Source of the DNA: Syntrophales bacterium
Lineage (GTDB): Bacteria > Desulfobacterota > Syntrophia > Syntrophales > UBA2192
Assembly: GCA_035450185.1 (NCBI GenBank)
Contig: DAOTMG010000004.1
Location: 10,046 to 74,045 of the forward strand
Direction of reading: 5' to 3'
Length of the DNA: 64,000 bases
The translations under genes were made by a program, and so were the position numbers. How positions within the stretch are numbered: position 1 is the stretch's first letter; each line of letters opens with the position of its first letter. Positions 5,878 through 62,709 of this stretch are shown in pieces. The notes beneath the pieces are model-generated. The model saw nothing but the letters and a program-made list of their open reading frames with translations. It searched no databases and was not told the DNA's origin.

Positions 5878-6735
5878 ATGATGAGAAAAAATGCAAGTTG
5901 CATGGAATGGATGCCCGGGAAGGGATGGGCGGTGATCATGGCGGTCATCCTGGCCGCCGGTTTCGCCCACGGCCAGAGCTGCGGGGTGAAGCCGGGGGGT
6001 GTGGTGAAGGAATACCGCACCGGAGACGACGGGGTGGTCCGGGGCTGGACGGAGAAGGAATTCGACGACCGGGGCCGTCTCCGGAGAGAATCAAGTAAGG
6101 ACGGCAGCGGAAAGGTCATTCGCTCGAGGGAATGGAGCCATGACAAGGCGGGTCGTGTGACGAAGACCGTCGACAGGGATTCGAAAGGAGACGTCGTTTA
6201 CCTCCACGAGCGACTCTACAACGACGGCGGCAGATTGACAAAGGACTACACGGAAGAAAGAGGTCGGGTCACCCTGTGGACGGAGTATGCCTACGACGAC
6301 AAAGGGAATATGGCGGAAGAAATCCAGAGGGATCCATCCGGGTCTCTCGTCAAAATGTTTCAATACGATACAGGATGGAATCTCACGGAGGACGCAAAAG
6401 ACGCCGATCCTTTCAAGGCCTTCTACATCCGGTTCAAGTCCTCCAAAAAGTTCCAGCGCGACCACACCCGCTTTCCCCTCGAAGTGGTCATCTGCGGAGA
6501 CGGTGAGGGAAGGGATACGGCCCGAAGGAAAAAAATATCGAAAAAGGAATGGAGGTTCACCGATTTCAACGCTCCGGACTGGGAGGTCGCCGTCATGAAG
6601 ACGGACAGGGACGGTCCCGGTGAGTCGGCTCTCCGGTTGAGGGGAAAACGGGACAGCGGCGTTCTCGTCTACTACAGGTTCAAAAACATCAAGGAGAAAT
6701 GGACCCTCGTTGAGGTCGAGGATCGAAGCCGGTAA
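5878..6735 (+). CDS. secreted protein with YD/Rhs-like repeats
   Basis: 285-aa ORF with a signal-like N-terminus (WAVIMAVILAAGFAHGQ). Repeated G-R/K-hydrophobic-x-K/E...Y..YDDKGN units (GRLTKDYTEERGRVTLWTEYAYDDKGNMAEE). The C-terminal ~110 aa is unassigned. Exact start is uncertain. Confidence 0.5.
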   Translation: MMRKNASCMEWMPGKGWAVIMAVILAAGFAHGQSCGVKPGGVVKEYRTGDDGVVRGWTEKEFDDRGRLRRESSKDGSGKVIRSREWSHDKAGRVTKTVDRDSKGDVVYLHERLYNDGGRLTKDYTEERGRVTLWTEYAYDDKGNMAEEIQRDPSGSLVKMFQYDTGWNLTEDAKDADPFKAFYIRFKSSKKFQRDHTRFPLEVVICGDGEGRDTARRKKISKKEWRFTDFNAPDWEVAVMKTDRDGPGESALRLRGKRDSGVLVYYRFKNIKEKWTLVEVEDRSR

Positions 6736-6756: not shown

Positions 6757-8742
6757 CTACCGGACGCACCCCTGTGCCGCGGCCATGAACTGGCGGTCGT
6801 CATTGTCCAGGGCACCGTTTCTGTCCAGGTCGGCGCCGTCGCACCACCCGTTGCCGGCGGAGCACACCGCATTCGAACCAAAAAGGTTCCAGAGATAATC
6901 GAAGATCGCCATGTCGGCTCCGTCGACGGCGCCCGACCCGTCCAGGTCCGCCGGTGTGCATCCGAGCCTTGCCCATGAGCAGTCCAGGGTCTGCGGGGCC
7001 AGGCTGCACAGAGAGATTTCCTTCCAGAACTGAATGTCGCCGAACCAGAGATGGCGGGGATTTTCCGTCGGTATCCACCGGCCGTCGGGTCCGACGCATT
7101 CGTATCCTTCGCCCGCCCGCCGGACGGGGACGGAATCGCCGAATCGGTTTCGATACCGTTCCCGGATCCAGCGCTCTCGCTTCTCCAATGCGGTCATGAC
7201 CTTCTCGCGGATTTGCTCATCCGTCATGAGCGGGGAGGGAATAGTGTCTCCCGATTCGAGCCGGGATTCTATCGCCCGGATCCTGCCGTCGCCGGGTTCG
7301 AAGTTTCTGAGGTCCTCCAGCGGGGCGTCCATGTCGAACATCCGTGCGTACAGGGCGGCATGGTATGTCAGGTCTTCGTCGTTCAACAGACGGGCGATCC
7401 GGATCATGTTCCACAGGGTTTTCCTTGCTTCGTCGTAGAGCGCATTCTGCCGGGTCATCCCGGCGTAGTAACATAGGCCCGCCGCGCTCAACAGGATTTC
7501 CTTGAAATCATCCCGGACGCCGGAGGTGGCTTTTTTCAGCAGTTCCGGAGAGAGGTTCGCAAGCGTCTCCGCGATGGTGAGCACATCGCTCCAGCAGACA
7601 CCCATGACGGCATCGTCCATCGAGCGGCAGGTGGTCATCGCCGCCGGAAGTCTGATTTCCGGAAGCGGGTAGGTCAACCCCTCCGAAGAGATGGCCCTGG
7701 CCAGATAGGCCATCTGGCAGGAGACAAGGCTGCCCAGGTCCTGCGCCTCGGTGGTGCCGTCCGGCCGTCGCCGGCCGGCGGGTACAAGCATTGAGTAGTC
7801 GTGCCACTCGTCCACGGTCGTCAGGGTCATCCCCGCGGCCGCGATGGCGTCACAGGTTCGCCGTGCCGCCGCGGCGGCGCGGCCGGCGGCCTCCGCCAGG
7901 TCTGCCGGCAGGCCCGGTGTCGCGGCGGCCTCGACCGCCGCGAGGTAACCCATCGCGTAGTCGGGGAAATTGTCACGGGAGTTGTGATTTCCCCAGTAAG
8001 CCCCCTTCCACAATCCCGTCCGGGTCACCATCCAGGAGGAGCAGCAGTCGGAGATGCGCAGGAAGTCGGGCAGCACGTTGAATACAAAGGTGGTCGAGAA
8101 GTCTTCGAGCTCATTGACGGCCTTGAAATTGAAATAGTATTCTCCGGGGTCGTTGCGGTAGGTGAAAACGACACCATCGTAAAAGCGGTCAAGAATCTCC
8201 CTCTCAAGGAGAGAGCTGTAAGCCGCCGGCGGCGTCACGGAGCTACCGGACTTTGTGCGTGTGACCGTTTTGTTCACACCGTCCAGCGTCACGGTCCAGC
8301 CGGGCAGAGCTTCGCGGCACGTGAGACCCGGATGCCCCGAGACGTCTTCGTTGAAAGCCAGCCCCTCGAAAAGACGGATGAGGGTGAGCTCGAGGTCCCG
8401 CCCGCCGATGGCCTGATAACCCTTCCATGCCCCGAACACCGTCATTCCGATGGGATTGTTGTCGTTGGGGCCGGGTACGGACTCATACCGATTGCCCGAC
8501 CTGGCGATATAATTCTTGCCGAAGGCCGATGCGAAGACGGTGTCACCGGCGAGCCCGAATCGGTTGAGCGCAAGTACGGTCCGCTCGGCTCTCTCTCTGT
8601 AGAAGAGCTTGAAGGCCTCGGCTCTGGCATTCGGGTTGGCGGCGGGTGGGGGGATGGCGCCCGAAGGTATCTTGGTACAGCAGGCGGACAGCGACAATGG
8701 AACGGTGATGAGAACGGAAAGGAGGGTACTTTTTCGAATCAT
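6757..8742 (-). CDS. lipoprotein of unknown function with C-terminal dockerin/EF-hand-like Ca-binding repeat pair
   Basis: 661-aa ORF with a lipobox-like LSLSAC after a hydrophobic leader. The C-terminus has two DxDxDG-type loops (DLDGSGAVDGADMAIF and DLDRNGALDNDDRQF). Confidence 0.65.
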   Translation of the reverse strand: MIRKSTLLSVLITVPLSLSACCTKIPSGAIPPPAANPNARAEAFKLFYRERAERTVLALNRFGLAGDTVFASAFGKNYIARSGNRYESVPGPNDNNPIGMTVFGAWKGYQAIGGRDLELTLIRLFEGLAFNEDVSGHPGLTCREALPGWTVTLDGVNKTVTRTKSGSSVTPPAAYSSLLEREILDRFYDGVVFTYRNDPGEYYFNFKAVNELEDFSTTFVFNVLPDFLRISDCCSSWMVTRTGLWKGAYWGNHNSRDNFPDYAMGYLAAVEAAATPGLPADLAEAAGRAAAAARRTCDAIAAAGMTLTTVDEWHDYSMLVPAGRRRPDGTTEAQDLGSLVSCQMAYLARAISSEGLTYPLPEIRLPAAMTTCRSMDDAVMGVCWSDVLTIAETLANLSPELLKKATSGVRDDFKEILLSAAGLCYYAGMTRQNALYDEARKTLWNMIRIARLLNDEDLTYHAALYARMFDMDAPLEDLRNFEPGDGRIRAIESRLESGDTIPSPLMTDEQIREKVMTALEKRERWIRERYRNRFGDSVPVRRAGEGYECVGPDGRWIPTENPRHLWFGDIQFWKEISLCSLAPQTLDCSWARLGCTPADLDGSGAVDGADMAIFDYLWNLFGSNAVCSAGNGWCDGADLDRNGALDNDDRQFMAAAQGCVR

Positions 8743-10280: not shown

Positions 10281-10685
10281 TCAGAGATTGTCGATTTCCG
10301 CGAGGAGTTCCCGGCCGGCCTCGAGGGGTTTCATGAAGTACCACCAGTTCTTCCTGGAGGACCAGCCCTCCGCCTCCGCGACCTCGTCTCCCCAGAGGCA
10401 CCGGCCCGCCGGGACAGCCGCTTTCTTCATTCGGGCATCGGCGCGATGCAGGCGATCGGCGTACATCCCCTTTTCCCTTGCAGGGGCGACGGCGAGGGCC
10501 TCCTCGAGAAGCTGCCTTCCATCCATATCGTTCAGATAATCATCCAATCCCAGGCTGTAGCCTTCTACGACGCACTCGACGACACTTTCCCAGTTCTCGA
10601 CGAGCCCCTTCAAGCCTCCCCGGACCACATGTTTCGGGCAGCCTCTCTCTTTCAGGAATTCGGAAACGGGATTTGTCTTTGCCAT
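10281..10685 (-). CDS. hypothetical cytoplasmic protein (possible partner of the upstream lipoprotein)
   Basis: ORF 10281-10757. The likely start is ATG 10685 (MAKTNPVSEF...) with AAAGGA upstream. It begins 28 nt after the stop of the 10714-11148 gene. Confidence 0.5.
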   Translation of the reverse strand: MAKTNPVSEFLKERGCPKHVVRGGLKGLVENWESVVECVVEGYSLGLDDYLNDMDGRQLLEEALAVAPAREKGMYADRLHRADARMKKAAVPAGRCLWGDEVAEAEGWSSRKNWWYFMKPLEAGRELLAEIDNL

Positions 10686-10713
10686 TTCGCCGTCCTTTCG
10701 GGGACAATCATTT

Positions 10714-11148
10714 TCAGCGGTACCGAAGGGCCTGGCGGCGGAAATAGGCTTCTCCATCGCTCGGCCGGAAGTAAGTCCGGATCACGCCGTCGGCATCGTA
10801 GGCGATGAAGTCGCCCGTTGCCCGGTCGAAGCGGGTGACGACGCCGTCGCGCCGGACACGCTCGAGGATGTTGCGGTCCGCCGGACGATCCCTGAGCTCC
10901 TGGGCTCTCAGCAGATACTGCTCTTTTGTAATCGACCCGAATTCACGACCGTGTTTCTGGTAATGATCGATCCATTTCCGGCGTGAGGCGAAGCCGACCT
11001 CCGGCTTTGCGGTCTTCGGTTTTTCGGCGAAAGCGGCGCCTGTTTCACTTCCCTGTGGCGCCGCGGGCGGCTCGGACGGGGACGTGCAGGCGAAGGCCAG
11101 AACAAGGAGAGCAACCGCCGGGACCACCCGCCGGAAGAAAAACCGCAT
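10714..11148 (-). CDS. lipoprotein with C-terminal domain carrying an HxxKHxxEF motif
   Basis: ORF 10714-11175. The likely start is Met at 11148 (MRFFFRRVVPAVALLVLAFAC, lipobox LAFAC). A low-complexity linker is followed by WIDHYQKHGREFGSITKEQYLLRAQEL.... Confidence 0.55.
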   Translation of the reverse strand: MRFFFRRVVPAVALLVLAFACTSPSEPPAAPQGSETGAAFAEKPKTAKPEVGFASRRKWIDHYQKHGREFGSITKEQYLLRAQELRDRPADRNILERVRRDGVVTRFDRATGDFIAYDADGVIRTYFRPSDGEAYFRRQALRYR

Positions 11149-11489
11149 CGCAGACCTGCATGGCGTACGGGTCATCGGGTTTGTCAGGGTCCTCCTTTCC
11201 TCGACGCCGGCACAGGACCCCTCGGCCGCGGTGCCCTTTCAGGGAGAACGCCGTCCGTCGAGGGGAGAGACGACGGAAAATTTTTTAGCACAGAAACCGT
11301 GACTGATCAACGGTGTTTCCCCGCAATGCGGCTCCTCCCATGGGGGTTTGTTTCCTCGGGTCCGCGGGCTTCCGCTGGAAGGGAATGGATGAAATTTCAG
11401 AACAGGTTGAAGAGGGTGCTTCCGGGTGGCTTGCGAGCGGATTCAGCCGGAAAAAGAGAGGGACAGGACCGTGAGAGGTTTCCGGCCTT

Positions 11490-13634
11490 TCAGACTTTTT
11501 GAATCGGGATGGATACCCGGAAGGTGCTTCCTGTGCCCGGTTCGCTCTGGACCGTGATTTTTCCGCCCATCTCCTGCACGAGATTATTGACGATGTACAA
11601 CCCGATACCCGTTCCCGTTCCATCTTTTTTTGTGGTGAAGAAGGGAAGGAAGGCATTGTTTCTTGTGTTTTCGTCCATGCCGCAGCCGTTATCCGACACT
11701 TCGATGTTGAGATATCTCCCGTTCTCTGTTTCGCGAAACGCCCTGAGCTTGATCCAGGAGTTTTTTTTGTCCGATGCGTGCGATGCATTGATCAGCAGGT
11801 TGATGAGCACCTGCTCGATCGCCTCAACATCCGCCATGATCGCGGGCAGATCTTCTTCGACCCGTATCTGGAAGTCCTTGACGGTTTTCTTGATCTCGTT
11901 CCTGCAGATGGCAACGGCCCGTTCGATCGGTTCTCCGGGATCCATGAGCTTGATGTCGCTGCCACCCCTCTTCCTAGCGAATCCCGTGAGTTTACTGATG
12001 GTCGCATGGATCCGCTGCGCGCCGTGTTCAATGTTGTCGATCAGTTTCAGCAGGTCTTCATGCAGGTCGATATAGGACATCCCCATGATCTCGGACTGCG
12101 GATTTCGGACAGCCTGTTGCTCGAGAAGAGGAAGGACGGCCTGGATGTAATCCTTCAGAATCGGTATGTTGAAAATGATAAAATTATTCGGGTTGTTCAG
12201 CTCATGGACGATGCTGGACACGAGAAGGCCCAGAGTGGCCAGTTTCTCCCGCTGAAGTATTTCTTTTTCGAGGTTCTTTTCCTTCGTGATGTCGGTGATC
12301 CGGATAATGGCGGATCCTAATTTTCTGTGATCCTCCTGTATGGGATAAATGACCGTCTTCTTGTGGGACCCGGGTTGCCTGGAGGATGAAGATTCAAGAC
12401 TTAGTTTTTGAAAGTCGACGATTGCTGATCGAATCGACTTGAGAGAGTTGTCGTCGTAGCAGCCTTCCACGAGAGATAGGAAAGGTTTTCCGAGAACCTC
12501 GAAATAATCGGCGAAATTGAAGTGGTCGAGAGTACTCCGGTTGGCCATCAGGATATTGAGGTGACTGTCCACCAGAATCAGCGGGTCCGAAATGCTGTCA
12601 AAGACCGAACGGAGGGTGTTTCTGCTCTGCTGCAGCATACCTTCCATGCGCAGGCGTTCCGCAAGCTCTTTCTTGAGCGTTGTGTTGGCATTCGCCAGTT
12701 CTTCGTTGCGTTTCTTGATACGGTCCTCCAGATCTGCATAGGCTTTCGAAAAGGCTCTCTCCGCTCTGCGTCGCTCGGTGACGTCCTCCAGACTCACGAT
12801 GTGATTTTTTTTACCTTCGACGGGCAGCACCTTGATGGTGATCTCCCTGCCGTTCCGGAGGCGAAAGGAGGGCGGGTTTCCGTTTTGCTGCTTCTGTTTT
12901 TTGATGGAGAAAAGCCCCGTCACGCTCGAGCGTTCCCCTTCCTCGAAGTGATCGGTCCACTTCGTTGAGATCAGATCTACCTCGGGCATGCCCAGTATCG
13001 AAACGGCCGTCCGGTTTGCGAAGACGATCTTTCCCTCCTCCGTCAGTTCCACGAGACCCTCCGTCGTGCTCACAATGACGGTTTCCAGATGCTCTCTCAC
13101 GGACAGGAGTTCGGAGACGACGCTTCGGACCGGCGTGCCGGTCGGGTCTGCCATTCGGGGTTTCTTCCTCCCGGACGTTTTGTATTCGAGCGTTGAAAGA
13201 GCCTCCGTGATTTGGCTGAAAGTCTGCGGGAAAGGCCCCTTGGCGATATAGTCGTCGGCCCCCAGGTCGCTGGATTCGACAACGGCTCCGTCGACGGCCG
13301 TGGCGGTTACGATGACGATATGGACATCCCTGACGGGAGAATCCATTTGACGAATCATCCTGCAGAGCCGCTCCCCGCTGGTGTTCGGCATGACCAGATC
13401 CAGAAGCACCGCATCGACCTTCGTGGTCTTCAAGATCTCCAGGGCCCCTGCGCCGTCTTCTGCGGTGAGCACCCCGTATCCCATTTTCCTGAGACCTTTC
13501 GCGACGAGCGAAAGAAACACGGCATCGTTGTCCACAGCCAGAATGGTTCTTCGCCTCGAATCCATCGCGCATTTCTTCCGGCTTTCTGTGTGGCGTGATC
13601 GACTTCGTTTTGCCTTAACAGGACTTTCTTTCAT
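11490..13634 (-). CDS. hybrid sensor histidine kinase (REC-PAS-PAS-HisKA-HATPase)
   Basis: 714-aa ORF with an N-terminal receiver (ILAVDNDAVF...DAVLLDLVMP), PAS-like segments, H-box (SSIVHELNNP), and N/G1/G2 boxes (LINLLINASHA, DNGCGM, GTGIGL). An alternative start is Met at 13565. Confidence 0.85.
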   Translation of the reverse strand: MKESPVKAKRSRSRHTESRKKCAMDSRRRTILAVDNDAVFLSLVAKGLRKMGYGVLTAEDGAGALEILKTTKVDAVLLDLVMPNTSGERLCRMIRQMDSPVRDVHIVIVTATAVDGAVVESSDLGADDYIAKGPFPQTFSQITEALSTLEYKTSGRKKPRMADPTGTPVRSVVSELLSVREHLETVIVSTTEGLVELTEEGKIVFANRTAVSILGMPEVDLISTKWTDHFEEGERSSVTGLFSIKKQKQQNGNPPSFRLRNGREITIKVLPVEGKKNHIVSLEDVTERRRAERAFSKAYADLEDRIKKRNEELANANTTLKKELAERLRMEGMLQQSRNTLRSVFDSISDPLILVDSHLNILMANRSTLDHFNFADYFEVLGKPFLSLVEGCYDDNSLKSIRSAIVDFQKLSLESSSSRQPGSHKKTVIYPIQEDHRKLGSAIIRITDITKEKNLEKEILQREKLATLGLLVSSIVHELNNPNNFIIFNIPILKDYIQAVLPLLEQQAVRNPQSEIMGMSYIDLHEDLLKLIDNIEHGAQRIHATISKLTGFARKRGGSDIKLMDPGEPIERAVAICRNEIKKTVKDFQIRVEEDLPAIMADVEAIEQVLINLLINASHASDKKNSWIKLRAFRETENGRYLNIEVSDNGCGMDENTRNNAFLPFFTTKKDGTGTGIGLYIVNNLVQEMGGKITVQSEPGTGSTFRVSIPIQKV

Positions 13635-13646
13635 CTGCCCCGGATC

Positions 13647-14099
13647 CTAAAGACTGCTTTCAATGACCTGTTTGAGATGTTTCATGGCAACGGGCTTCAT
13701 CAAGATTTTTTTTATTCCGAAAAAGGAGGCTTCCTCGGCTGAAATCAATTCGGTGTAGCCGGAGCAGAGGATGACGGAGATATCCGATCTGATCTGCCTC
13801 AAGTGATCGGCCAGGGTCAGGCCCGTCATGTACGGCATCGTCTGGTCCGTGATGACCACGTCATAATCATCCGGTCCGGCCCTGAAGGTTTCCAGAGCCT
13901 CTACACTGTTTGTTTTCATGTGAACCTGATGACCGAATTGCCGCAGCATCTCGGCGAGATGCAGACAGAATATTTCTTCATCGTCGACGAGGAGAATGCG
14001 CTTCTTTTTCCCTGCCGCAACGCGGTACAGGTTCACCGAACCTCCCGCGGCGTTTATTTCTGTCGAATCGGTTTTTTCGACATCCGGCATAACAGACAT
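13647..14099 (-). CDS. single-domain response regulator (receiver)
   Basis: 150-aa ORF with RILLVDDEE...DVVITDQTMPYMTG...SGY...KP receiver hallmarks. It lies immediately upstream of, and co-oriented with, the kinase. Confidence 0.8.
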   Translation of the reverse strand: MSVMPDVEKTDSTEINAAGGSVNLYRVAAGKKKRILLVDDEEIFCLHLAEMLRQFGHQVHMKTNSVEALETFRAGPDDYDVVITDQTMPYMTGLTLADHLRQIRSDISVILCSGYTELISAEEASFFGIKKILMKPVAMKHLKQVIESSL

Positions 14100-14383
14100 C
14101 TCCTTTATTCTTTCAGCGGTCGAAATCTCTATCCTTCGGGGGACATCAAGAGAATTTTCGCGAAATGTGTTTCAAGATCGCCGGCGCACGGCTGTCTTCT
14201 GATCCGATCGAGCAACACCCTCCACCGTATTATCGTAAATGTCGTGAAATACTTTAAATCCGGCACAATGGATAAAAGTCCGTTCATCGCGAATGGTCTG
14301 ATTTCTTTTTCATGGATTCGGAGGACGGTGAACAAAAAAGGACGGACTCAATCGGCGATGTTCCAACCCCCGGGTTTATCTCT

Positions 14384-14401
14384 GACCATTCCAAAATGGC
14401 A
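14384..14401 (+). promoter_or_regulatory. 18-nt conserved upstream motif GACCATTCCAAAATGGCA (candidate EBP binding site), copy 1
   Basis: Identical 18-mer recurs at 18970-18987. It contains the inverted repeat CCATT-N4-AATGG and lies 178 bp upstream of the -24 element at 14562. Confidence 0.45.
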
Positions 14402-14561
14402 TCCGGGCGCAAATCCTGTGATTTCATTCATTTTTGGGATGCTGTATCCCCAAACGGCACGGTTCGAATCCACCGATGCCGTACCGGTTACCGGAGGGCA
14501 TCTTTGTCCAACTAACGAATTATATTAAGCATTATTCTCCTCAGGGGTCTTATGCGGTCGC

Positions 14562-14576
14562 TGGCACGACCGGTGC
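14562..14576 (+). promoter_or_regulatory. sigma-54 (-24/-12) promoter candidate
   Basis: TGGCACGACCGGTGC fits TGGCAC-N5-TTGC with correct GG-N10-GC spacing. It is 79 nt upstream of ATG 14655 and nearly identical to the element at 19146. Confidence 0.6.
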
Positions 14577-14654
14577 CTAAGTCGAAGGCATTAGAACAGC
14601 CATAATGCCATTGGGCGGTAGCCCGGTGTAGAATCAGAGAAGGACCTCAATGCT

Positions 14655-15098
14655 ATGAAGAAAGTCAGCCTGAGAGGAAAAACAATCACCATCGTCGGGC
14701 CTTCGACCTATGAGACCTTTTTGAAAGCCCATTACCTCACACAGGAAACGGGTGTGACCTTTCGTTTTTTTCGTGGGGAGAAATCCGGACCCCCGCCCGG
14801 CAATGACCCGGTGAGTTCGTCGGTGATCGTGCTTGTCGACTGCCAGATGGAGAAGGTGGAAAACTGCCTGCCGACAATAAAGGCCGATTCGCAGCTGAAT
14901 GGTATTTTCCTGAAGCCTCTCGTGCTTTTTAACGTGGCTCCCGAGGATGTCCAGAAGGGAGAGGCGGTGAACGGCGTGATCAAGGGTCTCCTGTCCCCCT
15001 ATGCTTCGCCGGAGGTCTTCCTCGAGATGATCATTCATGTGGCCTGCGAGGAAAGAAGATCCGCAACGGCAGAATGTGGAGCTTTGAAGCAGACATGA
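14655..15098 (+). CDS. CsgD-type N-terminal (pseudo-receiver) domain protein lacking an HTH
   Basis: 147-aa ORF. It aligns by eye with the N-domains of the LuxR-type genes at 16288 and 19227 (ITIVGP / IIILGS / ICIIGP; VLVDC / FLIDC / FLIDS; LFNV / IFNT / LFNI; GVIKGLL / GVKGIFY / SVQGIFY) but ends before any LuxR HTH. Confidence 0.6.
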   Translation: MKKVSLRGKTITIVGPSTYETFLKAHYLTQETGVTFRFFRGEKSGPPPGNDPVSSSVIVLVDCQMEKVENCLPTIKADSQLNGIFLKPLVLFNVAPEDVQKGEAVNGVIKGLLSPYASPEVFLEMIIHVACEERRSATAECGALKQT

Positions 15099-15697
15099 AA
15101 AAAAGGCGACGGATGATCAAACAAGATGACCCGCATTGCCGGTTGCCGGGTCTTTCCACCCTTCGATCAAGCCGGTCTGTGCCCCCGATAACGTGCCGCG
15201 ACGGGTTCACCTTCATCGAGATCGTGGCGGTCATTGCCATCCTGGGAATTGTAGCGGCCATGGCGCTCCCCAAATATTTCAGCCTTATGAATGAAGCGAA
15301 GCACAAGGTCGCACAAGCGGCCGTCGCCGAGGGCAATGCGAGGGTCAACTTGTGGGGGGTGAGCCAGTATCTGAAAAACGGCGTCTGGCCGACGGTTGAT
15401 CAGTACGAGGCCGCAGCGGATACGATCGGCACCGACACGGGGGAATTTATTATCTCCTATACGAAGGAGGATGTGACCACCCTGAAGATTTCGGCACGGG
15501 GAAGGGCAGCGACGAATTTCGAGGGCATCGAGGCAACGCTTCGAGTCAATCCGCCCGGAAACAGCGGCCCATCGTTGTTTCAGCCCGGAGGAAGGGTTCA
15601 GATGATTCCGAAGAAGGGAAAAAACAAATACGCTGACTTTCGAACAGGAGGGGGAAATGTCCCCGAAATCGACGGAGTCCCTGTCGGGAACCTTTAA
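15095..15697 (+). CDS. type IV pilin-like protein (prepilin N-terminal cleavage/methylation domain)
   Basis: Class III signal G|FTFIEIVAVIAILGIVAAMALP with Glu at +5. ATG 15095 overlaps the upstream stop (ATGA). Alternative in-frame GTG at 15179 would give a 9-aa leader. Confidence 0.7.
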   Translation: MKKRRRMIKQDDPHCRLPGLSTLRSSRSVPPITCRDGFTFIEIVAVIAILGIVAAMALPKYFSLMNEAKHKVAQAAVAEGNARVNLWGVSQYLKNGVWPTVDQYEAAADTIGTDTGEFIISYTKEDVTTLKISARGRAATNFEGIEATLRVNPPGNSGPSLFQPGGRVQMIPKKGKNKYADFRTGGGNVPEIDGVPVGNL

Positions 15698-15890
15698 GGT
15701 GGTGATTGCGGCTGTGGTTTGGGAAAAGCGTTTTGCGAAATTCACCCGGACATTCTCCCGCGATGGAGAGGAGACCCCGGATTCGCAGTGGGTTCCCCTG
15801 GAGAAGAAACTGGAGAGTTATCGCATTGCCGTTCGCGGAAATTCGAAGGTTCTTAAGGGCGATCGCCTGAGCGGGTGCGTCTCCTGTTAG
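15657..15890 (+). CDS. hypothetical small protein
   Basis: 77-aa ORF with a strong SD (AGGAGGGGGAA-ATG). It overlaps the pilin 3' end by 41 nt. No family recognised. Confidence 0.35.
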   Translation: MSPKSTESLSGTFKVVIAAVVWEKRFAKFTRTFSRDGEETPDSQWVPLEKKLESYRIAVRGNSKVLKGDRLSGCVSC

Positions 15891-15929
15891 ACGGCACGGA
15901 ATGATAAGACGAATGAAAGGAAGTCTACG

Positions 15930-16229
15930 ATGATGGAACCGGTAACAAGCTCAGTTCCAGAGATCAACCTGGCCGGCCACAAGCCTTCCCTGATTCTCCA
16001 GAAAAGGATCGGGGTGAAGTATGCGCTGCAGCACAGGATCATCGTATTGAGCGAGTCTGCGGAGCGGATAGAGATGGTGATCGAAGGGACTTCACCCGTG
16101 ATCATGGACGAAATCAGGAAAATGATTCCCAGGGGGAAAGAGGCGGTCTTCTTCAGGGCGGATCCCCGGGAAATCGAAGCAGCCATAACGAAACTCTATG
16201 ACCCTTACGGTTTGTCCCGGTATTGCTGA
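15930..16229 (+). CDS. stand-alone T2SSE_N/MshEN-like domain protein
   Basis: 99-aa ORF. The pattern ...KYALQHRIIVLSESAERIEMVIEG...AVFFRADPREIEAAITKLY resembles N-terminal domains of GspE/PilB/MshE ATPases. Assignment is by eye only. Confidence 0.5.
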   Translation: MMEPVTSSVPEINLAGHKPSLILQKRIGVKYALQHRIIVLSESAERIEMVIEGTSPVIMDEIRKMIPRGKEAVFFRADPREIEAAITKLYDPYGLSRYC

Positions 16230-16287
16230 TCAAAAGGAATCCATTTCAGAGATAGCGATGGTAGTCTCAGAGAGACGGGGTACGATC

Positions 16288-17001
16288 ATGAGCGGTAAAG
16301 AAATTATCATTCTCGGAAGTCAGAACTATCAAAACGAGATTCTGGCCTATTATCTCGAGCATGAAAAGGGAATCGAGTGCCGGATCCTGCCGCCCGATTG
16401 CGGGCTCGCCACGGGACATTCAGGGGCAAACAGGGGGTCACGGCTGTTTCTCATCGACTGCAGTAAGGCCGATGTCGCAAGATATTTTATGCATCCTCCG
16501 CTGGACGGGGACCGTCCTGCCTTCCAGCACCCCGTCTCGATCTTCAATACCCGGCGTGACAGCGGGATCGAGGAAAGGGCCTTGCAGAGCGGCGTCAAAG
16601 GTATTTTTTACGAGGGGTTGCCTCTGAAGGAGTTGATCGAAGGCATCTTCGAGATTTTCAATGGCGGGATCTGGTATCCGGAAGACCTGATGGCCAGATG
16701 GATATCCCGTCATCGACGACGTGATGTCGTGCATGCAAAGGAGAGACCCTTTCTCTCATGTCGGGAAGTCGAAATCATCGGAAAGCTCGCCGAGGGGCTG
16801 ACCAATGACGAAATCGCGGAGCAATTGCACATCAGTCTTTTTACCGTAAAAACGCATCTTCAGAATATTTATCGAAAAATCAAGGCCACAAACAGAACAC
16901 AGGCGATCCTCTGGGCGTTCAAAAACCTTGCCGGAAGCCGGATAGACCCGTCGTGGCCGGGGGAGACAGGTGTCGAAAGAAAAGCTGTTGGCCATCATTA
17001 G
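16288..17001 (+). CDS. CsgD/LuxR-family transcriptional regulator (pseudo-receiver + LuxR HTH)
   Basis: C-terminal LuxR HTH (LSCREVEIIGKLAEGLTNDEIAEQLHISLFTVKTHLQNIYRKI). The N-domain is CsgD-like. The start is ambiguous (16198, 16258 or 16288); 16288 was chosen to avoid overlap with the upstream ORF. Confidence 0.8.
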   Translation: MSGKEIIILGSQNYQNEILAYYLEHEKGIECRILPPDCGLATGHSGANRGSRLFLIDCSKADVARYFMHPPLDGDRPAFQHPVSIFNTRRDSGIEERALQSGVKGIFYEGLPLKELIEGIFEIFNGGIWYPEDLMARWISRHRRRDVVHAKERPFLSCREVEIIGKLAEGLTNDEIAEQLHISLFTVKTHLQNIYRKIKATNRTQAILWAFKNLAGSRIDPSWPGETGVERKAVGHH

Positions 17002-17465
17002 AAAGATTCTGCAAACCGATGAGGATCTAAATTTCCTGCTTCGTCTCGACGACGGGGAACTCTGCAAACTTGTCGTGCTGATGAGACATAGACTCGATCG
17101 GCAGAGCAGCTCCTGAACCAATCCTCTCGCGCCTTTTATTATCGCGGTTAACAGCGGAAAATGACAGGTCATTGCCTGATTTTTGCATGAAACAAAAGGG
17201 GCGGTGATTGTCTGCTTCAAAATGGATTTCTCGTCACGTATCTAATTGAAATTGTTATATGATATCATAAACCCTTGTCGATGGGCGATCATGGCCCTCA
17301 AGGCTGTGCGGGGCGAGGTCTCGCCGGAGGCGGGTCGATCGATCAAAAAATTCGGTAACTCTGCAAAACGGAGACAGGCAGGCTCCGGGAAAAGGGTGTT
17401 TTCAAGGTGGTACCGCCCGATCACCCGAGTTCGGGCAAATCAGGCAGGGCAGACGAGCGACAGAG

Positions 17466-18860
17466 ATGACAAAAGAGCATGACATTTCGGCGGATGTGAC
17501 GATCCTCGCGATCGACGATGAGCAGGACTTTTTGGACAGCGTCAGACGGGGTCTGATCATGTCGGGATTCAAGAAAATCATCCTTTACAGTGACCCGAGA
17601 GATGCTGTGACGTTTCTGGAAAAGGGCGGCCGGGCGGATATCGCCCTCCTCGACATTTCCATGCCCTGGATGAAAGGCACGGAACTTCTCAAATACATCA
17701 AGGAGATCGATCCATCCATCGAGTGCATCATGGTGACGGCAATCGATGAAGCCCGATCGGCTGTGGACTGCCTGAAGGCCGGTGCCTACGACTACCTGGT
17801 CAAACCCTTGGTGAGGGATGACCTGCTCGCAGCGATCCATCGGGTCGCAGAAAAAAGAAAAATGATGGGGGCCCTTGCCCATTCCGAGTCGGGACAGTTG
17901 CCCCCGGGGATCCGCTCGGAGGTTTTCAAGACTATCATTACAGGCTCCGAAAGAATGATGCACATCCTGAAAGAAGCCGAACTTCATGCCCGGAGCGATG
18001 TGCCGGTTCTGATCACGGGGGAGAGCGGAACGGGAAAAGAGTTGCTCGCCAAAGCGATACATCTTGCGAGTCCCCGTGCCCGATCGCCCTTCCTATCCGT
18101 TAACATGGCGGCCCTGACGGGCAACCTCTTTGATGCGGAATTTTTCGGACACACGCGAGGAGCCTTCACCGGTGCGGAAAAGGACAGGATCGGTTACCTG
18201 GAAGCGACACACAGGGGTACGCTCTTCCTGGACGAAATCGGTGATCTGCCCGTCGAAGTCCAGGGGAAGCTCCTGAGAGTCCTTCAGGAAGGCGAATTCA
18301 TCAAACTCGGCACCAGCAAGACCATGAAGGTGGATGTCCGGTTCATCGCGGCGACGAATGCAGACATCGACCACCTGATGGCCAAAGGGGAATTCCGCAA
18401 AGATCTGTATTTTCGTCTGAAGGTCGCCCGGATCCATCTCCCGCCGCTCAGGGAAAGAAAAGAGGACATCCCCTTCCTCGTCGGCGATTTTTTGAAAGGC
18501 GGGCAAGACGGGTCCAGAGGTATCGACGTCGAGGAGAATGCGATGTCTCTCCTGATGGATTACGACTTTCCGGGCAACGTCCGGGAACTCCGATCCATCC
18601 TCCAGACTGCCGTGAATCTCTCACAGGGGAGACGTTTGGCATTGAGACACCTGCCGGACTATGTGAGGAAAGGCAGAAAAACCGCTTCGAAGACGGTTCT
18701 CCCCGATGGACGGTCCGTGATCTCCCTTTCGGAGACGGAAAAATCACACATCCTCAGGGTCTACAATGAAACCGGCGGCAACAAGATGAAGACGGCAAGG
18801 CTGCTTGGCATCGGTCTGAACACGCTTCGGAGAAAGCTGACATCCTATGGCATCAGTTGA
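17466..18860 (+). CDS. sigma-54-dependent response regulator (NtrC family: REC-AAA+-Fis HTH)
   Basis: 464-aa ORF with a receiver (ILAIDDEQDF...DIALLDISMP), Walker A GESGTGKE, GAFTGA loop (GAFTGAEKD), and a C-terminal HTH (GNKMKTARLLGIGLNTLRRKL). Confidence 0.9.
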   Translation: MTKEHDISADVTILAIDDEQDFLDSVRRGLIMSGFKKIILYSDPRDAVTFLEKGGRADIALLDISMPWMKGTELLKYIKEIDPSIECIMVTAIDEARSAVDCLKAGAYDYLVKPLVRDDLLAAIHRVAEKRKMMGALAHSESGQLPPGIRSEVFKTIITGSERMMHILKEAELHARSDVPVLITGESGTGKELLAKAIHLASPRARSPFLSVNMAALTGNLFDAEFFGHTRGAFTGAEKDRIGYLEATHRGTLFLDEIGDLPVEVQGKLLRVLQEGEFIKLGTSKTMKVDVRFIAATNADIDHLMAKGEFRKDLYFRLKVARIHLPPLRERKEDIPFLVGDFLKGGQDGSRGIDVEENAMSLLMDYDFPGNVRELRSILQTAVNLSQGRRLALRHLPDYVRKGRKTASKTVLPDGRSVISLSETEKSHILRVYNETGGNKMKTARLLGIGLNTLRRKLTSYGIS

Positions 18861-18969
18861 ACGTCGCTCGCTTCTGTTGAATATATTTCGGTATCCGGCC
18901 GGTCCCTTACCCGCCGGTTTTTTATATTGCCCGGTCTTCACCCCCCATTTCTTACGGCCTGCCTGAATC

Positions 18970-18987
18970 GACCATTCCAAAATGGCA
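18970..18987 (+). promoter_or_regulatory. 18-nt conserved upstream motif GACCATTCCAAAATGGCA, copy 2
   Basis: Identical to 14384-14401 and 176 bp upstream of the -24 element at 19146. Confidence 0.45.
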
Positions 18988-19145
18988 CAGTGCTTTTAAC
19001 TTACCGAACTCTCGCTGTTTTTAATCGAAGGCGTCCCGAGTCGGCACAGCGGCGGCGTGTCTTAAAAGGAAGAGTCCGAAAAGCAACATATTTTAACTAT
19101 ATAATAATATGAACGATTTTTCTTCAGGTGAGCCGCTGGCAAAGG

Positions 19146-19160
19146 TGGCACGTCCGGTGC
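19146..19160 (+). promoter_or_regulatory. sigma-54 (-24/-12) promoter candidate
   Basis: TGGCACGTCCGGTGC is 67 nt upstream of the preferred start ATG 19227. It differs from the 14562 element at one position. Confidence 0.6.
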
Positions 19161-19226
19161 TCATACAGTGTGCCATATGCGGGAGAACATCCCGAGGTGA
19201 CCGCAACCGATAAAGGACACCGTTAC

Positions 19227-19934
19227 ATGTCGACGGATGACAGTCAGAACAAGCAAATCTGCATTATCGGCCCCCTGAAGGTTCAGAACGATGCGCTGGC
19301 CCGCTATCTAGAGGAAAACCTGGGCGTCGAGTGCACGAAGCTCGCACTGGACGACGGTATGACGCTTCCGGAGAGAGTGCAGGGTAAAAAATCCGTTCTT
19401 TTTCTTATCGACAGTTTCGAAGCAAACCTCACGGCGAAGATATCAGCATTGAAAAACAGGTTCAGAGATGTCCTTTATGAATTCTACATCTGCCTGTTCA
19501 ATATCCGGCCGGATCGAAGCATGGCTGAAGAGACGTTAAACCGGTCGGTTCAGGGGATTTTTTATATCGATGACGATATCCAGAATCTCATCAGAGGCAT
19601 TCAGGCCGTATTCAACGGTGAGTTGTGGATATCCCGTCGGATCCTGACCCGATTGATTCAGAATCACGCGGCGGGACGGCAGGTCGAGGAGGTGAACGCG
19701 GATATTCTGACGGCGCGGGAGATCGAGATCCTGTACCTGCTCGCCACCGGCAAGGACCAGACCGCGATCGGGAATACCCTGTTCATCAGCCCTCACACGG
19801 TGAGAACACATCTTTCCAACGTGTTCAGAAAGATCGGGGTGAGGAACCGGATCGAGGCCAAGGTGTGGTTTGAGAAGAATCGCACGGCCCTGAGGCCGGA
19901 GACGAAAAGGGCCGGAGTCCGGATCGGGAAGTAA
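19227..19934 (+). CDS. CsgD/LuxR-family transcriptional regulator (pseudo-receiver + LuxR HTH)
   Basis: ORF 19128-19934. The start is set at ATG 19227 (MSTDDSQNKQICIIGP) so the promoter at 19146 is not inside the gene. HTH: LTAREIEILYLLATGKDQTAIGNTLFISPHTVRTHLSNVFRKI. Confidence 0.8.
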   Translation: MSTDDSQNKQICIIGPLKVQNDALARYLEENLGVECTKLALDDGMTLPERVQGKKSVLFLIDSFEANLTAKISALKNRFRDVLYEFYICLFNIRPDRSMAEETLNRSVQGIFYIDDDIQNLIRGIQAVFNGELWISRRILTRLIQNHAAGRQVEEVNADILTAREIEILYLLATGKDQTAIGNTLFISPHTVRTHLSNVFRKIGVRNRIEAKVWFEKNRTALRPETKRAGVRIGK

Positions 19935-20039
19935 GATGGAATGTTTTATTTTTCCCTGCCGGCTGCGGTGAACCGAAGAAGCGTAAAAAAGAGGCACCCT
20001 GCGGGCAGGGACAGGAAGCCTATCGAAGGGAAAGAGATA

Positions 20040-20192
20040 ATGACGATGTTCTCATGGTTATCGAGACCCTTTTTCTTCTACCTGCTCCTGTTGTTCATGA
20101 TCGCCTATTACATGTATGACATGGCCTTTGGTGCCGTCTCGGAAATTGCAGAGCACATTGGTGTGTCCGTCTGCCGGTCTATAGGGCCGTGA
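20040..20192 (+). CDS. possible small membrane protein
   Basis: Internal ATG of ORF 19941-20192 gives MTMFSWLSRPFFFYLLLLFMIAYYMY... with one TM. The RBS is weak and there is no homology signal. Confidence 0.3.
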   Translation: MTMFSWLSRPFFFYLLLLFMIAYYMYDMAFGAVSEIAEHIGVSVCRSIGP

Positions 20193-20619
20193 TGAACATT
20201 TTTCAGGACAAGCATTACGCCTGCTTTGAGATACGCAAGTTGAGCATCTGACCCCTTTGAAATTCCGGGTCCCGCTCTCGATCACGGGACCGGCTGTCAC
20301 CGTGCTCAATGTCGTCCTGCCACGTTGCCTCCATCACTTTGATCAGATCCGCCGAAATCCATTTCAGACGACTCTCCAGCGGCAAAATGAATGCAAGCTT
20401 CAGCCGGACCGGGGGAAAGCCGCCGGATCCCGTAGGAAAATTTTTTAGGGCCCTTCCAAGGGGTGCAGAGACAGCACGGAATCTGCAAAAGAACCGTTGA
20501 ATTGACTCATTCTTTCTGATATTTCACCGGATCAGTTCCTGAAAGGGTGATCGGGAAGCGGAATCACGTCGAAAGAGACGCCGTTCGCGCACGCGTCGAA
20601 TGGGCGGAAGAGGGGCGGC

Positions 20620-21663
20620 ATGACAGCGGTGCCAGATCTAGGTGAAGGCCTGAACTCGCTGAACGGGAAACAGAGAAAAAAGAAGATGGTCGTCTTTTCG
20701 GCGCTCGCGGTCTTCGTGGCCGTGATCATCGTGTCGTCGCTCCTTTATTTCCAGTACCGGAAGACTCACGTGAGCACCGACGACGCCTTCGTCGACGGTC
20801 GCGTTTATCTCGTCGCCTCGAAGATCCCGGGTACGGTGAAGGTCCTTCACGTCACGGACAACCAGATGGTGAAGAAGAATGACGTCCTTGTTGAAGTCGA
20901 CCCCGCCGACTACGATGTGAAGGTGCTGGAAGCACAGGCCGGCTTTGAGGCCGCGAAGAATCAGTTCGTCGAGTTCCAGGCCTCGCTCGAATCGGCCCGT
21001 GCCAACCTCGAAGCGCAGGAGTCCCTCCTCCACAAGGCCGAGATCGATTTCCAGAGGGCCGACTCCCTGGTCAGGGAAGACCTCGTGACGAAGGAATTTT
21101 TCGACCAGAAGAAAACCGGCCTCGATGTGGCCCGGGCTCAGGTCAAAGCCGCGAGGGAACTCGTGAGAAAGACGGAGGCATCCCTGGGAACGCAAAAGGC
21201 CGTCATCCGGCACGCCCGGTCCTCCCTCCAGGGAGCGACGCTGAATCAGAGTTACACGAAAATCTCGGCCCCCGCCGATGGGTACGTGACCAAGCGGAAC
21301 GTGGAGGTCGGGAATCGGGTTCAAACCGGCCAGCCCCTGCTCGCCGTTGTGTCGCTTTCGCCGGGGGATGTCTGGATCACGGCCAATTACAAGGAGACGG
21401 ATCTGACCCGGGTGAAACCCGGCCAGAAGGTCAGGGTCAAGGTGGATACCTATCCGGGCAGGGTTCTTCACGGGAGGGTGGAGAGCATCATGGCCGGCAC
21501 GGGATCCGCTTTTTCACTCTTCCCGCCTGAAAACGCCACGGGCAATTATGTGAAAGTGGTCCAGAGAATTCCCGTCAAAATCGTGCTGGACGAAGCGAAC
21601 CGGAAGGACCCGGTGCTCCGGATCGGCATGTCCGTCGTGCCGACGATTCTGACCGATCAGTGA
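20620..21663 (+). CDS. HlyD/EmrA-family membrane fusion protein
   Basis: 347-aa ORF with an N-terminal TM, then STDDAFVDGRVYLVASKIPGTV...VEVDPADY, a coiled-coil, and ...ITANYKETDL...VKVDTYPG, which is typical of EmrA. Confidence 0.85.
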   Translation: MTAVPDLGEGLNSLNGKQRKKKMVVFSALAVFVAVIIVSSLLYFQYRKTHVSTDDAFVDGRVYLVASKIPGTVKVLHVTDNQMVKKNDVLVEVDPADYDVKVLEAQAGFEAAKNQFVEFQASLESARANLEAQESLLHKAEIDFQRADSLVREDLVTKEFFDQKKTGLDVARAQVKAARELVRKTEASLGTQKAVIRHARSSLQGATLNQSYTKISAPADGYVTKRNVEVGNRVQTGQPLLAVVSLSPGDVWITANYKETDLTRVKPGQKVRVKVDTYPGRVLHGRVESIMAGTGSAFSLFPPENATGNYVKVVQRIPVKIVLDEANRKDPVLRIGMSVVPTILTDQ

Positions 21664-34949: not shown

Positions 34950-35203
34950 GGGAACCGTGCCTCGAGCCGCCTGCACGTTCCGGCGGCATCACAGCAACAC
35001 AAACGAGGAACCCCGCTCACAGGGGTGGCGGGGTCGTTTTCACGTTTCATGACGTTCTCCGGACGAACAGAAAGAGCCTCTTTGTCTTCAGCGACGCGTG
35101 GATAACACGTAAAGGTGCGAAGTCACGCCCTGTGGACAGATTTATAAAAACACCAGGAACGAAAAATGTCAAATCAAATTGAGGTGCCGGCGGAAAGAGA
35201 CGG

Positions 35204-40100: not shown

Positions 40101-40344
40101 GCGGTATCAGGTCCGTCAATTCATGCCGGGGAAAATCTGAAGACCATGCATAGCATCCCTGATCTCCCGGCTTCGGCGTGATCCACTCTTCTTTCATGAG
40201 TAATTGGATTACAGACATCAATCTCGACGGCGGGTAGAAAGATAACCAATCCACAGAGAAAAAATCTGGAAAGGCCGCAAAATCATAAAGGACATGCCTC
40301 TCATCTACGGACATTCCGGTCACGACATTTTCGATTTTTGACAT
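37192..40344 (-). CDS. large sigma-54-dependent activator (TPR/MalT-like N-region, GAF, AAA+, Fis HTH; no receiver)
   Basis: ORF 37192-40383. The start is set at ATG 40344 (GGAGGG 6 nt upstream). AAA+ core [32 protein letters not shown]-like block precedes it and a long helical-repeat N-terminus is present. C-terminal HTH: [24 protein letters not shown]. Confidence 0.85.
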
Positions 40345-40408
40345 CGTCACCCTCCATTCGGGCACACCGAATCTCATATCCATATCTCACAATGGAACAA
40401 GCCTGTCA

Positions 40409-62633: not shown

Positions 62634-62709
62634 TGGCGTCCCCACGGGGATTCGAACCCCGGTTACCGGCGTGAAAGGCCGGTGTCCTGGGCCTCTAGAC
62701 GATGGGGAC
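62634..62709 (-). tRNA. tRNA-Glu (anticodon UUC), CCA encoded
   Basis: The minus strand reads GTCCCCATCGTCTAGAGGCCCAGGACACCGGCCTTTCACGCCGGTAACCGGGGTTCGAATCCCCGTGGGGACGCCA. It is 76 nt and folds as a cloverleaf (acceptor GTCCCCA/TGGGGAC, anticodon loop CTTTCAC, T-loop TTCGAAT). It is near-identical in architecture to E. coli tRNA-Glu. Confidence 0.92.

Follow-up and report, generated by a model that had tools for sequence, protein, structure and literature searches.

Which role can a pilin gene play in an operon that it shares with transcriptional regulators and with a fragment of a motor-protein domain? This question is raised by a locus in a 64,000-nt stretch of DNA from a Syntrophales bacterium (hereafter the window), in which an operon at positions 14655-17001 combines a type IV pilin gene with two genes for proteins of the CsgD/VpsT type and with a gene for a small GSPII/T2SSE_N-type protein. 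A sequence-only reading of the window had proposed that the operon encodes a surface or adhesion switch responding to cyclic di-GMP (c-di-GMP). Our analysis favours a different picture, in which the locus would be a lineage-restricted accessory pilin module of uncultured Syntrophales, placed under two-component control via sigma-54; we give this picture as a whole about an even chance of being right, and the function of the module is one that we infer from sequence. The genes of the locus are listed below, with lengths in amino acids (aa); A, E and F denote the CsgD/VpsT-type genes, and Pfam matches were judged throughout against curated cut-offs.

11490-13634, minus strand: soluble hybrid histidine kinase (REC-PAS-PAS-HisKA-HATPase, by Pfam domains), divergent from the operon
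13647-14099, minus strand: stand-alone canonical receiver (Response_reg 73.9 bits; DD, D, S and K all present)
14655-15098, plus strand: gene A, 147-aa CsgD/VpsT-type pseudo-receiver without DNA-binding domain (hhalign, BLASTP)
15095-15697, plus strand: type IV pilin (N_methyl, PF07963, 26.2 bits, cut-off 21.2; TIGR02532 27.7 bits)
15657-15890, plus strand: small conserved protein of 77 aa (91-95 aa in orthologues), with an in-frame coding signature
15930-16229, plus strand: stand-alone GSPII/T2SSE_N alpha/beta subdomain of the MshEN_C type, 99 aa (PF05157 30.3 bits, cut-off 23.1)
16288-17001, plus strand: gene E, CsgD-type LuxR regulator with a pseudo-receiver and a GerE helix-turn-helix (HTH) domain (GerE 70.2 bits)
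16970-17116, plus strand: conserved 48-aa open reading frame (ORF) with a GTG start (MSKEKLLAII...), overlapping the 3' end of E by 32 nt
17466-18860, plus strand: NtrC/AtoC-type sigma-54-dependent response regulator (REC, AAA+ and Fis-type HTH, by Pfam)
19227-19934, plus strand: gene F, VpsT-like LuxR regulator (VpsT-like_REC, PF21155, 42.1 bits, cut-off 27; GerE 62.2 bits)

The five plus-strand ORFs of the operon were found exactly where the sequence-only reading had placed them, and the gene order that it gave (14655, 15095, 15657, 15930 and 16288) is real. The ATGA coupling of A to the pilin gene, in which the stop codon of A overlaps the pilin ATG, was also borne out by the sequence, and the same overlap is present in the orthologous loci L013 and L014. 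N_methyl, PF05157 and GerE, the three models named in that reading as a check, all scored above their Pfam cut-offs. The operon structure that it described therefore stands, but it had missed the sigma-54 promoters, the adjacent sigma-54 regulator and kinase, and the 48-aa gene. With these included, the hybrid kinase and the receiver are encoded on one strand, and A, the pilin, the small ORF, the 99-aa protein, E, the 48-aa ORF and the sigma-54 regulator follow one another on the other.

This gene order is identical in all related loci of sufficient length, that is, in the window and in at least seven distinct, diverged Syntrophales lineages (loci compared: L011/L025 from GCA_900174595.1, L012, L013, L014/L023/L024 from a Syntrophales metagenome-assembled genome, L021, L022 and L027). 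The sequence-only reading had named a lack of synteny in any relative as evidence against itself, and synteny is instead kept in all of these lineages. Protein identity between the window and the lineages ranged from 41 to 96% across the locus; it was highest for the response regulator (83-96%), and reached 68-74% for the hybrid kinase, 63-74% for E, 65-82% for the 48-aa ORF, 51-64% for the pilin, A and the 99-aa protein, and 41-50% for the small ORF. The ratio of non-synonymous to synonymous polymorphism (pN/pS) was below 1 for all genes of the locus and lowest in the true frame, indicating purifying selection, and the genes of the operon overlap or leave short gaps. The locus was recovered at 99.8-100% identity in 10 independent metagenome assemblies. 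Its distribution is that of a narrow clade, with one match among 185,579 species representatives, and a metagenome scan with the A family yielded nine loci. Judged by these comparisons, the gene arrangement is not a product of chance.

Sigma-54/two-component control of a pilin gene is classical, and both GSPII domains and CsgD/VpsT regulators are well known. What is unusual here is the combination of these elements within one conserved operon, together with a GSPII domain cut down to its free alpha/beta subdomain and a CsgD-type domain lacking its DNA-binding part.

The evidence for the control of the module comes from the intergenic DNA on both sides of the operon and of the regulator gene, where the following elements were recognized:

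14384-14401, plus strand: upstream site 1 of the A promoter, GACCATTCCAAAATGGCA, candidate enhancer-binding site, 171 nt upstream of the -24 element
14447-14462, plus strand: upstream site 2 of the A promoter, TCCCCAAACGGCACGG, of putative function, ~115 nt upstream of the -24 element
14562-14577, plus strand: conserved sigma-54-type -24/-12 promoter TGGCACGACCGGTGCC (GG-N10-GC), 78 nt upstream of A
17172-17187, plus strand: invariant element of 16 nt, TTGCCTGATTTTTGCA, in the spacer from the 48-aa ORF to the response-regulator gene
18895-18925, plus strand: GC-rich, terminator-like hairpin with a T-run behind it, downstream of the regulator gene, read from the alignment
18970-18987, plus strand: upstream site 1 of the F promoter, the same 18-mer as at 14384-14401, 169 nt upstream of the -24 element
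19034-19049: counterpart of upstream site 2 at the F promoter, ~112 nt upstream of the -24 element
19146-19161, plus strand: second sigma-54-type -24/-12 promoter TGGCACGTCCGGTGCT, upstream of F and near-identical to the A promoter

The TGGCAC and TGCC blocks of the A promoter were invariant in four lineages, the mean column identity of the whole intergenic region being 58%, and 15 of the 16 bases of the F promoter were identical in three lineages. The core blocks of both promoters are constant across lineages, whereas the flanking intergenic DNA has diverged. The loose GG-N10-GC consensus by itself showed no enrichment in the window; the 15-mer TGGCACGNCCGGTGC that is common to both promoters occurs twice in the window and in none of 100 shuffles. 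Upstream of the two promoters, CCAAAATGGCA was found in the window only at 14391 and 18977, and the 18-mer GACCATTCCAAAATGGCA has no further copy in the window. Upstream site 1 is conserved in the orthologous intergenic regions, and upstream site 2 corresponds to a conserved block in the intergenic alignments A1 and A7. When the A and F promoter regions were aligned with each other, a common layout emerged, consisting of the 18-mer, the second block, an AT-rich spacer and the -24/-12 element. These upstream sites are putative activator-binding sites, and the locus has, as predicted features, both a sigma-54 promoter and an activator gene close to it.

The regulator gene sits between the two sigma-54 promoters. 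Its product has a canonical receiver domain, scored 217.6 bits for Sigma54_activat, 82.8 bits for Response_reg and 40.2 bits for HTH_8, and showed a pN/pS of 0.06-0.17. Because of its position, its conservation and the general behaviour of such activators, we take this regulator to be the presumed activator of both promoters. All related loci keep the kinase and the single receiver in synteny, and the hybrid kinase is the candidate sensor of the module; the nearest NCBIfam model of the kinase was AtoS-like, below its cut-off, and neither the kinase nor the regulator reached a specific NCBIfam equivalog.

Two further elements flank the regulator gene. The TTGCCTGATTTTTGCA element is invariant but for one T/C position in five orthologous loci, within a spacer that is otherwise poorly conserved, and it overlaps a weak terminator-like hairpin. 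We considered it as a third sigma-54 promoter and rejected this, as it has no GG of a -24 box; it may serve as a binding site for a regulator, or a tiny ORF on the minus strand (MQKSG...) may start there. The hairpin after the regulator gene, CCGGCCGG...CCGCCGG followed by TTTTTT, is conserved in three lineages and looks like an intrinsic terminator, although it was not listed by a consensus terminator scan.

The arrangement recalls the control of pilA by PilS-PilR and sigma-54 in Pseudomonas, Myxococcus and Geobacter, where the pilin gene likewise lies behind a GG-N10-GC promoter, with genes for an NtrC-type regulator and a kinase adjoining. It differs from that system in several ways: the kinase is a soluble PAS hybrid kinase and not the membrane-bound PilS, the pilin gene comes second among the six genes of its operon, a further promoter of this type serves a VpsT-like regulator gene, and the response regulator fits no specific equivalog. 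In the related Syntrophus aciditrophicus, pilS, pilR and pilA have been reported (bioRxiv 10.1101/479683).

The most distinctive member of the operon is the 99-aa protein, which had been described as T2SSE_N-like. A word-indexed homologue search with it returned only itself, and a PDB sequence search gave no match. An exhaustive HMMER search detected 42 relatives at E<=1e-3 among 1.84 billion representatives. Besides one orthologue, the best of these were either short proteins or proteins in which the domain lies C-terminal, behind GAF, DUF4388 or GGDEF modules; true T2SSE ATPases accounted for only two of the ten multi-domain relatives scanned with Pfam. An AlphaFold2 model built from the alignment of the relatives had a mean predicted local distance difference test (pLDDT) score of 78.9, with ~20 mostly unstructured residues preceding an alpha/beta unit of the order alpha-alpha-beta-beta-alpha-beta-alpha. 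In a Foldseek search with this model, the top 19 PDB matches were all of the GSPII/MshEN type (PilF GSPII-A and GSPII-B, the PilB N-domain with PilZ, MshE with c-di-GMP, and the XpsE N-domain), with a template modelling (TM) score of ~0.65 normalized by the query (range 0.57-0.69) and of ~0.45 by the 140-aa targets. The model thus indicates a T2SSE_N fold, of which only the C-terminal half is present: the fold proposed earlier was upheld by PF05157 and by Foldseek, but a complete MshEN domain was not found, only its alpha/beta subdomain. With the GSPII domains of MshE, PilF, PilB and XpsE (5htl, 8pdk, 9g1w, 7lko and 2d28; PMC5013675) the protein shares this alpha/beta fold, a three-stranded sheet with helices. 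It differs from them in standing alone at 99 aa, without MshEN_N, the 24-residue motifs or an ATPase domain, and in that its nearest relatives are small or fused to signalling domains and are not motor ATPases.

The alpha/beta half of the N-domain of pilus ATPases mediates protein docking in motor ATPases, and the 99-aa protein probably docks onto pilus machinery. The genomic neighbours of its non-ATPase relatives are consistent with this role. P0029 adjoins a 119-aa N_methyl pilin and a 405-aa PilX_N protein, P0036 adjoins a 381-aa protein with a faint PilX_N match, P0044 and P0030 adjoin T2SSE ATPase genes, and P0028 is followed by a receiver gene. Pilus or ATPase genes are thus neighbours in four of the five informative cases, a small sample, the contigs of P0025, P0027 and P0033 being too short.

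Could the 99-aa protein also be a receptor for c-di-GMP, as the sequence-only reading had it? In MshEN domains the ligand is held mainly by the four-helix MshEN_N subdomain, by means of two 24-residue motifs, while MshEN_C contributes a single contact (PMC5013675). We searched for the tandem motif RLGxx(L/V/I)(L/V/I)xxG(L/V/I)(L/V/I)xxxxLxxxLxxQ, and for a relaxed form also taken from PMC5013675; the 99-aa protein, three orthologues and all frames of 14000-20000 were devoid of both the strict and the relaxed form. The four-helix subdomain, which makes almost all contacts with c-di-GMP (PMC5013675), is likewise absent from the protein and its orthologues. A receptor function of the 99-aa protein is thus not supported, and the absence of MshEN motifs is what the earlier reading had itself named as evidence against its proposal. 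The relaxed motif does occur in two relatives, P0040 and P0061, where it precedes the part that aligns with the 99-aa protein by ~50 residues, and P0049 is a relative fused to GGDEF; these are points in favour of the proposed switch.

It is worth adding, as an observation on annotation, that the 90-position PF05157 model, called 'MshEN', covers the alpha/beta subdomain only (as seen in P0029, P0040, P0041 and at 15930-16229). A match to PF05157 does not by itself predict c-di-GMP binding, because the motifs lie upstream of the matched region, and this caution applies wherever a Pfam 'MshEN' match is read as information on c-di-GMP.

The other candidates for c-di-GMP sensing are the CsgD/VpsT-type proteins. 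Gene A gave no match in Pfam and no match in the library. Its kinship with the other two was detected by BLASTP (6e-8 against the E N-domain and 1e-4 against F) and by hhalign, in which a profile of 14 A homologues (54-83% identity, with LxDC invariant) matched the E/F-family profile with 98.5% probability and an E-value of 3e-15 over 126 columns. The AlphaFold2 model of A was poor (pLDDT 54), a Foldseek search with it gave nothing significant, the CsgD receiver 5xp0 ranking seventh with an E-value of 0.25, and the A profile returned only noise against the PDB. The fold assignment of A rests on hhalign because the structure and PDB routes gave nothing usable. The longest ORF for gene E begins at 16198. 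E scored 100 bits with the NCBIfam CsgD model, below its cut-off, and E, F and A all fall below the CsgD equivalog cut-off. E and F are 34% identical to each other; E reached only 14.2 bits with PF21155, the model that F passes. The best solved relative of F is VpsT (3kln, 1.2e-23), and its architecture is that of a VpsT-like pseudo-receiver followed by a GerE HTH, whereas A has neither Pfam domain. The Pfam and hhalign results agree with the earlier description of E as a CsgD/LuxR regulator and of A as a truncated paralogue without HTH. Next to F, an 83-aa ORF with a hydrophobic, aromatic-rich segment (19941-20192, plus strand) begins 6 nt after the gene, and an ORF is called there in related loci too.

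It had been noted that the three N-domains lack the acidic pair of receivers, and ITIVGPSTYE, IIILGSQNYQ and ICIIGPLKVQ do show GP or GS in its place in A, E and F. When F was aligned to NarL, Asn and Ile occupied the positions of the conserved Ser and Lys of NarL. The N-domains do keep the Asp of the acceptor position, which in the A family is the invariant D62. As far as their residues tell, the N-domains of A, E and F are pseudo-receivers and not canonical phosphorylatable receivers; the earlier judgement that they are unlikely to be phosphorylated agrees with the lack of the canonical receiver residues, this Asp excepted.

E and F have the same architecture of pseudo-receiver and GerE domain as VpsT of Vibrio cholerae and CsgD of enterobacteria; in contrast to these, A has no HTH, and the genes lie in a pilin operon of a Desulfobacterota-type syntroph. 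The alignment of F with VpsT takes in the W-x-[ST]-R site and the Ile141 position: F reads WISR opposite W-L-T-R134 of VpsT and has an Ile opposite I141. The generalized VpsT motif that Krasteva and colleagues reportedly gave in 2010 is W[F/L/M][T/S]R, and F has Ile where this motif has F, L or M. The orthologues of F read WIPR, with Pro instead of Thr or Ser. E reads WYPE (WFPE in its orthologues), with a Glu at the position of Arg134, and A ends just before the position of the motif. In VpsT, c-di-GMP binding is lost with the R134A substitution, and the c-di-GMP-dependent dimer with I141E (PMC3359988).

The residue signature of the VpsT-type sensing proposed in the sequence-only reading is thus missing from E and from A, and a near-motif is left only in F, which lies outside the operon that this reading had considered. 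The locus proteins that were scanned showed no GGDEF, EAL, HD-GYP or PilZ domain, and a search of 13600-20700 against Rfam, riboswitches included, gave no match even at E<=1. An adhesion switch in which MshEN-like and CsgD/VpsT-type proteins sense c-di-GMP and control the pilin is what the W-I-S-R and Ile of F, its score above the VpsT-like_REC threshold, and the motif-bearing and GGDEF-fused relatives of the 99-aa protein would support. Set against the missing subdomain and motifs of the 99-aa protein and its three tested orthologues, the residues of E, A and the F orthologues, and the lack of a c-di-GMP riboswitch and of c-di-GMP-related domains, we find this explanation unlikely. On the sequences at hand the proposed switch is largely unsupported, and any c-di-GMP input would enter, if at all, only via F.

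We then come to the pilin itself, whose earlier identification at 15095 was confirmed by the N_methyl score. NCBIfam found the GFxxxE pilin domain; the cleavage and methylation site is G↓FTFIE, with Glu5, the N-terminal helix is hydrophobic, and RDG↓FTFIEIVAVIAILGIVAAMALP gives the processed N-terminus. The best solved relatives are Neisseria PilE and PilA (2e-6 over 88 residues), and the alignment with PilE extends into the globular domain via a common YLxxGxWP segment. The mature core of ~121 aa is similar to type IVa major pilins, and the pN/pS of the pilin was 0.33-0.39. The conserved ATG that overlaps the stop codon of A, or just follows it, gives a leader of 31-37 aa whose sequence is hardly constrained; a GTG nine codons before the cleavage site is a candidate alternative start. 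The mature pilin contains no cysteine and hence no C-terminal disulphide-bonded loop, and two hallmarks of type IVa pilins, this loop and a leader under ~10 aa, are not found in it. As to composition, the pilin core (15206-15568) has 9.1% F/Y/W, with aromatics at positions 1, 24, 25, 50, 55 and 61 and a largest aromatic-free gap of 24 residues; these values, which are sequence counts only, are near the empirical 'e-pilin' criteria used for syntroph pilins (bioRxiv 10.1101/479683).

The sequence-only reading had also remarked on the lack of pilus assembly genes nearby. We found no gene for pilus or type II secretion assembly among the ORFs scanned, which take in the genes called up to ~10 kb from the operon and the majority, but not the whole, of the larger ORFs elsewhere in the 64-kb window. 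This result, together with the long, poorly conserved leader of the pilin, the lack of a C-terminal disulphide, its best NCBIfam match to the N-terminus of GspG and the share of signalling proteins in the locus (five of ~nine genes), would fit a purely regulatory cassette, in which the pilin-like protein is an inner-membrane signalling or autoregulatory component, or a pseudopilin of a secretion system, that forms no filament, and the locus mainly controls other genes via E and F. We hold this to be improbable, as the similarity to major pilins such as PilE goes beyond the N-terminal helix, the globular part of the pilin is under purifying selection, and the kinase has no membrane domain able to sense a membrane pool of pilin.

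Both small ORFs of the operon are real genes, as judged by their coding signatures. The small ORF at 15657 had a pN/pS of 0.50-0.60 in frame and of ~1.0-1.5 in the other two frames, and the 48-aa ORF, which is present in all orthologous loci, had values of 0.29-0.70 in frame and of 1.5-3.4 out of frame. The small ORF had no match in Pfam, NCBIfam or PDB; it has a conserved block, WVPLDETLxxY..RGxSxVxKxD, and its residue pattern suggests a beta-rich fold. We rejected a PilZ-like identity for it, given that RxxxR is unconserved among its orthologues and D/NxSxxG is missing. The 48-aa ORF matched no known family or structure, DUF2443 being sub-threshold only.

The junction between the pilin gene and the small ORF is altered in the window species, and only there. 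An alignment of 11 homologues shows that a 42-residue C-terminal extension of the pilin, due to the loss of its stop codon, is confined to this species; the extended frame runs across the Shine-Dalgarno sequence and the ATG (15602) from which the small ORF ancestrally started. A one-base shift at a run of six A (15619-15624) has split the rest of the small ORF from that start, and it is now served by a new strong AGGAGG and the ATG at 15657. As the junction is identical in the 10 independent assemblies, an error of assembly is ruled out; the A6 run may be a place of frameshifting or slippage. The lost pilin stop and the frameshifted start of the small ORF could also mark the decay of a former pilus locus that no longer has a function, which is hardly credible given that order and reading frames are kept in at least seven lineages, that every gene has a pN/pS under 1, with the minimum in the true frame, that the promoter cores are invariant, and that the altered junction has acquired its new Shine-Dalgarno sequence and ATG identically in all 10 assemblies.

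For the accessory pilin module that we favour, the following course of events can be proposed. The hybrid kinase and the receiver would feed the sigma-54 regulator, the NtrC-type protein being phosphorylated by the kinase. The phosphorylated regulator would bind the upstream sites common to the two promoters and activate both, as PilR does on pilA elsewhere. The prepilin peptidase of the cell would process the pilin, and a type IV pilus machinery whose genes lie elsewhere in the genome would assemble it. The 99-aa protein, a docking half without a nucleotide site, may serve at the motor or platform as adaptor or competitor and tip the machinery in favour of this pilin or against it. E and F would be phosphorylation-independent LuxR regulators that set the expression of downstream surface or biofilm genes. 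A copies the N-domain of E without DNA binding, and it might modulate E or F by heterodimerization, by analogy with other truncated members of the LuxR family. Truncated LuxR-family paralogues can poison their full-length partner, as TrlR does with TraR in Agrobacterium. A is likewise a regulatory-domain-only copy of a LuxR-type regulator from the same operon, whereas its domain is a pseudo-receiver and not an autoinducer-binding domain, and its heterodimerization would be an extension of that case.

Several points weigh against this account. The assembly of the pilin is only assumed, because the scanned parts of the window hold no assembly genes. The pilin has an unusually long leader by the standard of type IVa-like pilins and lacks the disulphide-bonded C-terminal loop. 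In the window species the loss of the pilin stop and of the ancestral start of the small ORF could maybe reflect relaxed function. The kinase is soluble, unlike the membrane-bound PilS, and the regulator matches no specific NCBIfam equivalog. E or F might equally occupy the upstream sites that we attribute to the regulator. The structure model of A is too poor to confirm its fold, and the roles given to the 99-aa protein, A, the small ORF and the 48-aa ORF are drawn by analogy.

A wider conjecture, to which we attach little probability, is that small non-ATPase proteins of the GSPII/MshEN type encoded beside pilin genes form an unrecognized class of accessory factors coupling signals to the pilus motor or platform. 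In the present locus, a bare docking subdomain and a CsgD-type pseudo-receiver without DNA binding would then belong to a sigma-54 autoregulatory module that times the use of an aromatic-rich pilin by which cells of syntrophic consortia would make contact and possibly exchange electrons.

If the accessory pilin module is real, it would represent a compact case of a bacterium adding a second, separately regulated pilin to a common pilus machine. It would also imply that the docking half of the N-domain of a pilus ATPase can be a free regulator, and that CsgD/VpsT-type pseudo-receivers are separable from their DNA-binding domain. The hosts are uncultured fatty-acid-degrading syntrophs seen in many metagenome assemblies, and the pili of syntrophs have been argued to matter for contact with the partner and for electron transfer (bioRxiv 10.1101/479683).

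The remaining window consists mostly of acyl-CoA/beta-oxidation genes together with further sigma-54 activators. Two of the latter flank the acyl-CoA/beta-oxidation cluster, an NtrC-type regulator (33555-34976, minus strand) and a 1063-aa TPR-GAF-AAA+ protein (37192-40383, minus strand), and the organism makes heavy use of sigma-54.

On the other side of the kinase gene, a 144-153-aa lipoprotein (lipobox LAFAC, HYQKHGREFG...) overlaps a downstream 134-158-aa acidic cytoplasmic protein (10281-11175, minus strand). Both are syntenic in relatives, neither has a Pfam match, and the pair looks like a secreted toxin with its immunity protein. A 661-aa lipoprotein (6757-8742, minus strand), without a Pfam match, ends in two Asp/Gly-rich, dockerin- or EF-hand-like repeats (DLDGSGAVDGAD and DLDRNGALDNDD); it adjoins a 285-aa secreted protein with RHS repeats (5878-6735, plus strand), and both are conserved beside the locus in relatives. 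In a 311-aa ORF (4823-5758, minus strand), an IS200-like Y1 transposase domain is joined to a DnaA C-terminal helix-turn-helix domain. Towards the right end of the window lie a group II intron D1-D4 match of 37.4 bits (62104-62262, plus strand) and a tRNA gene (62637-62709, minus strand).

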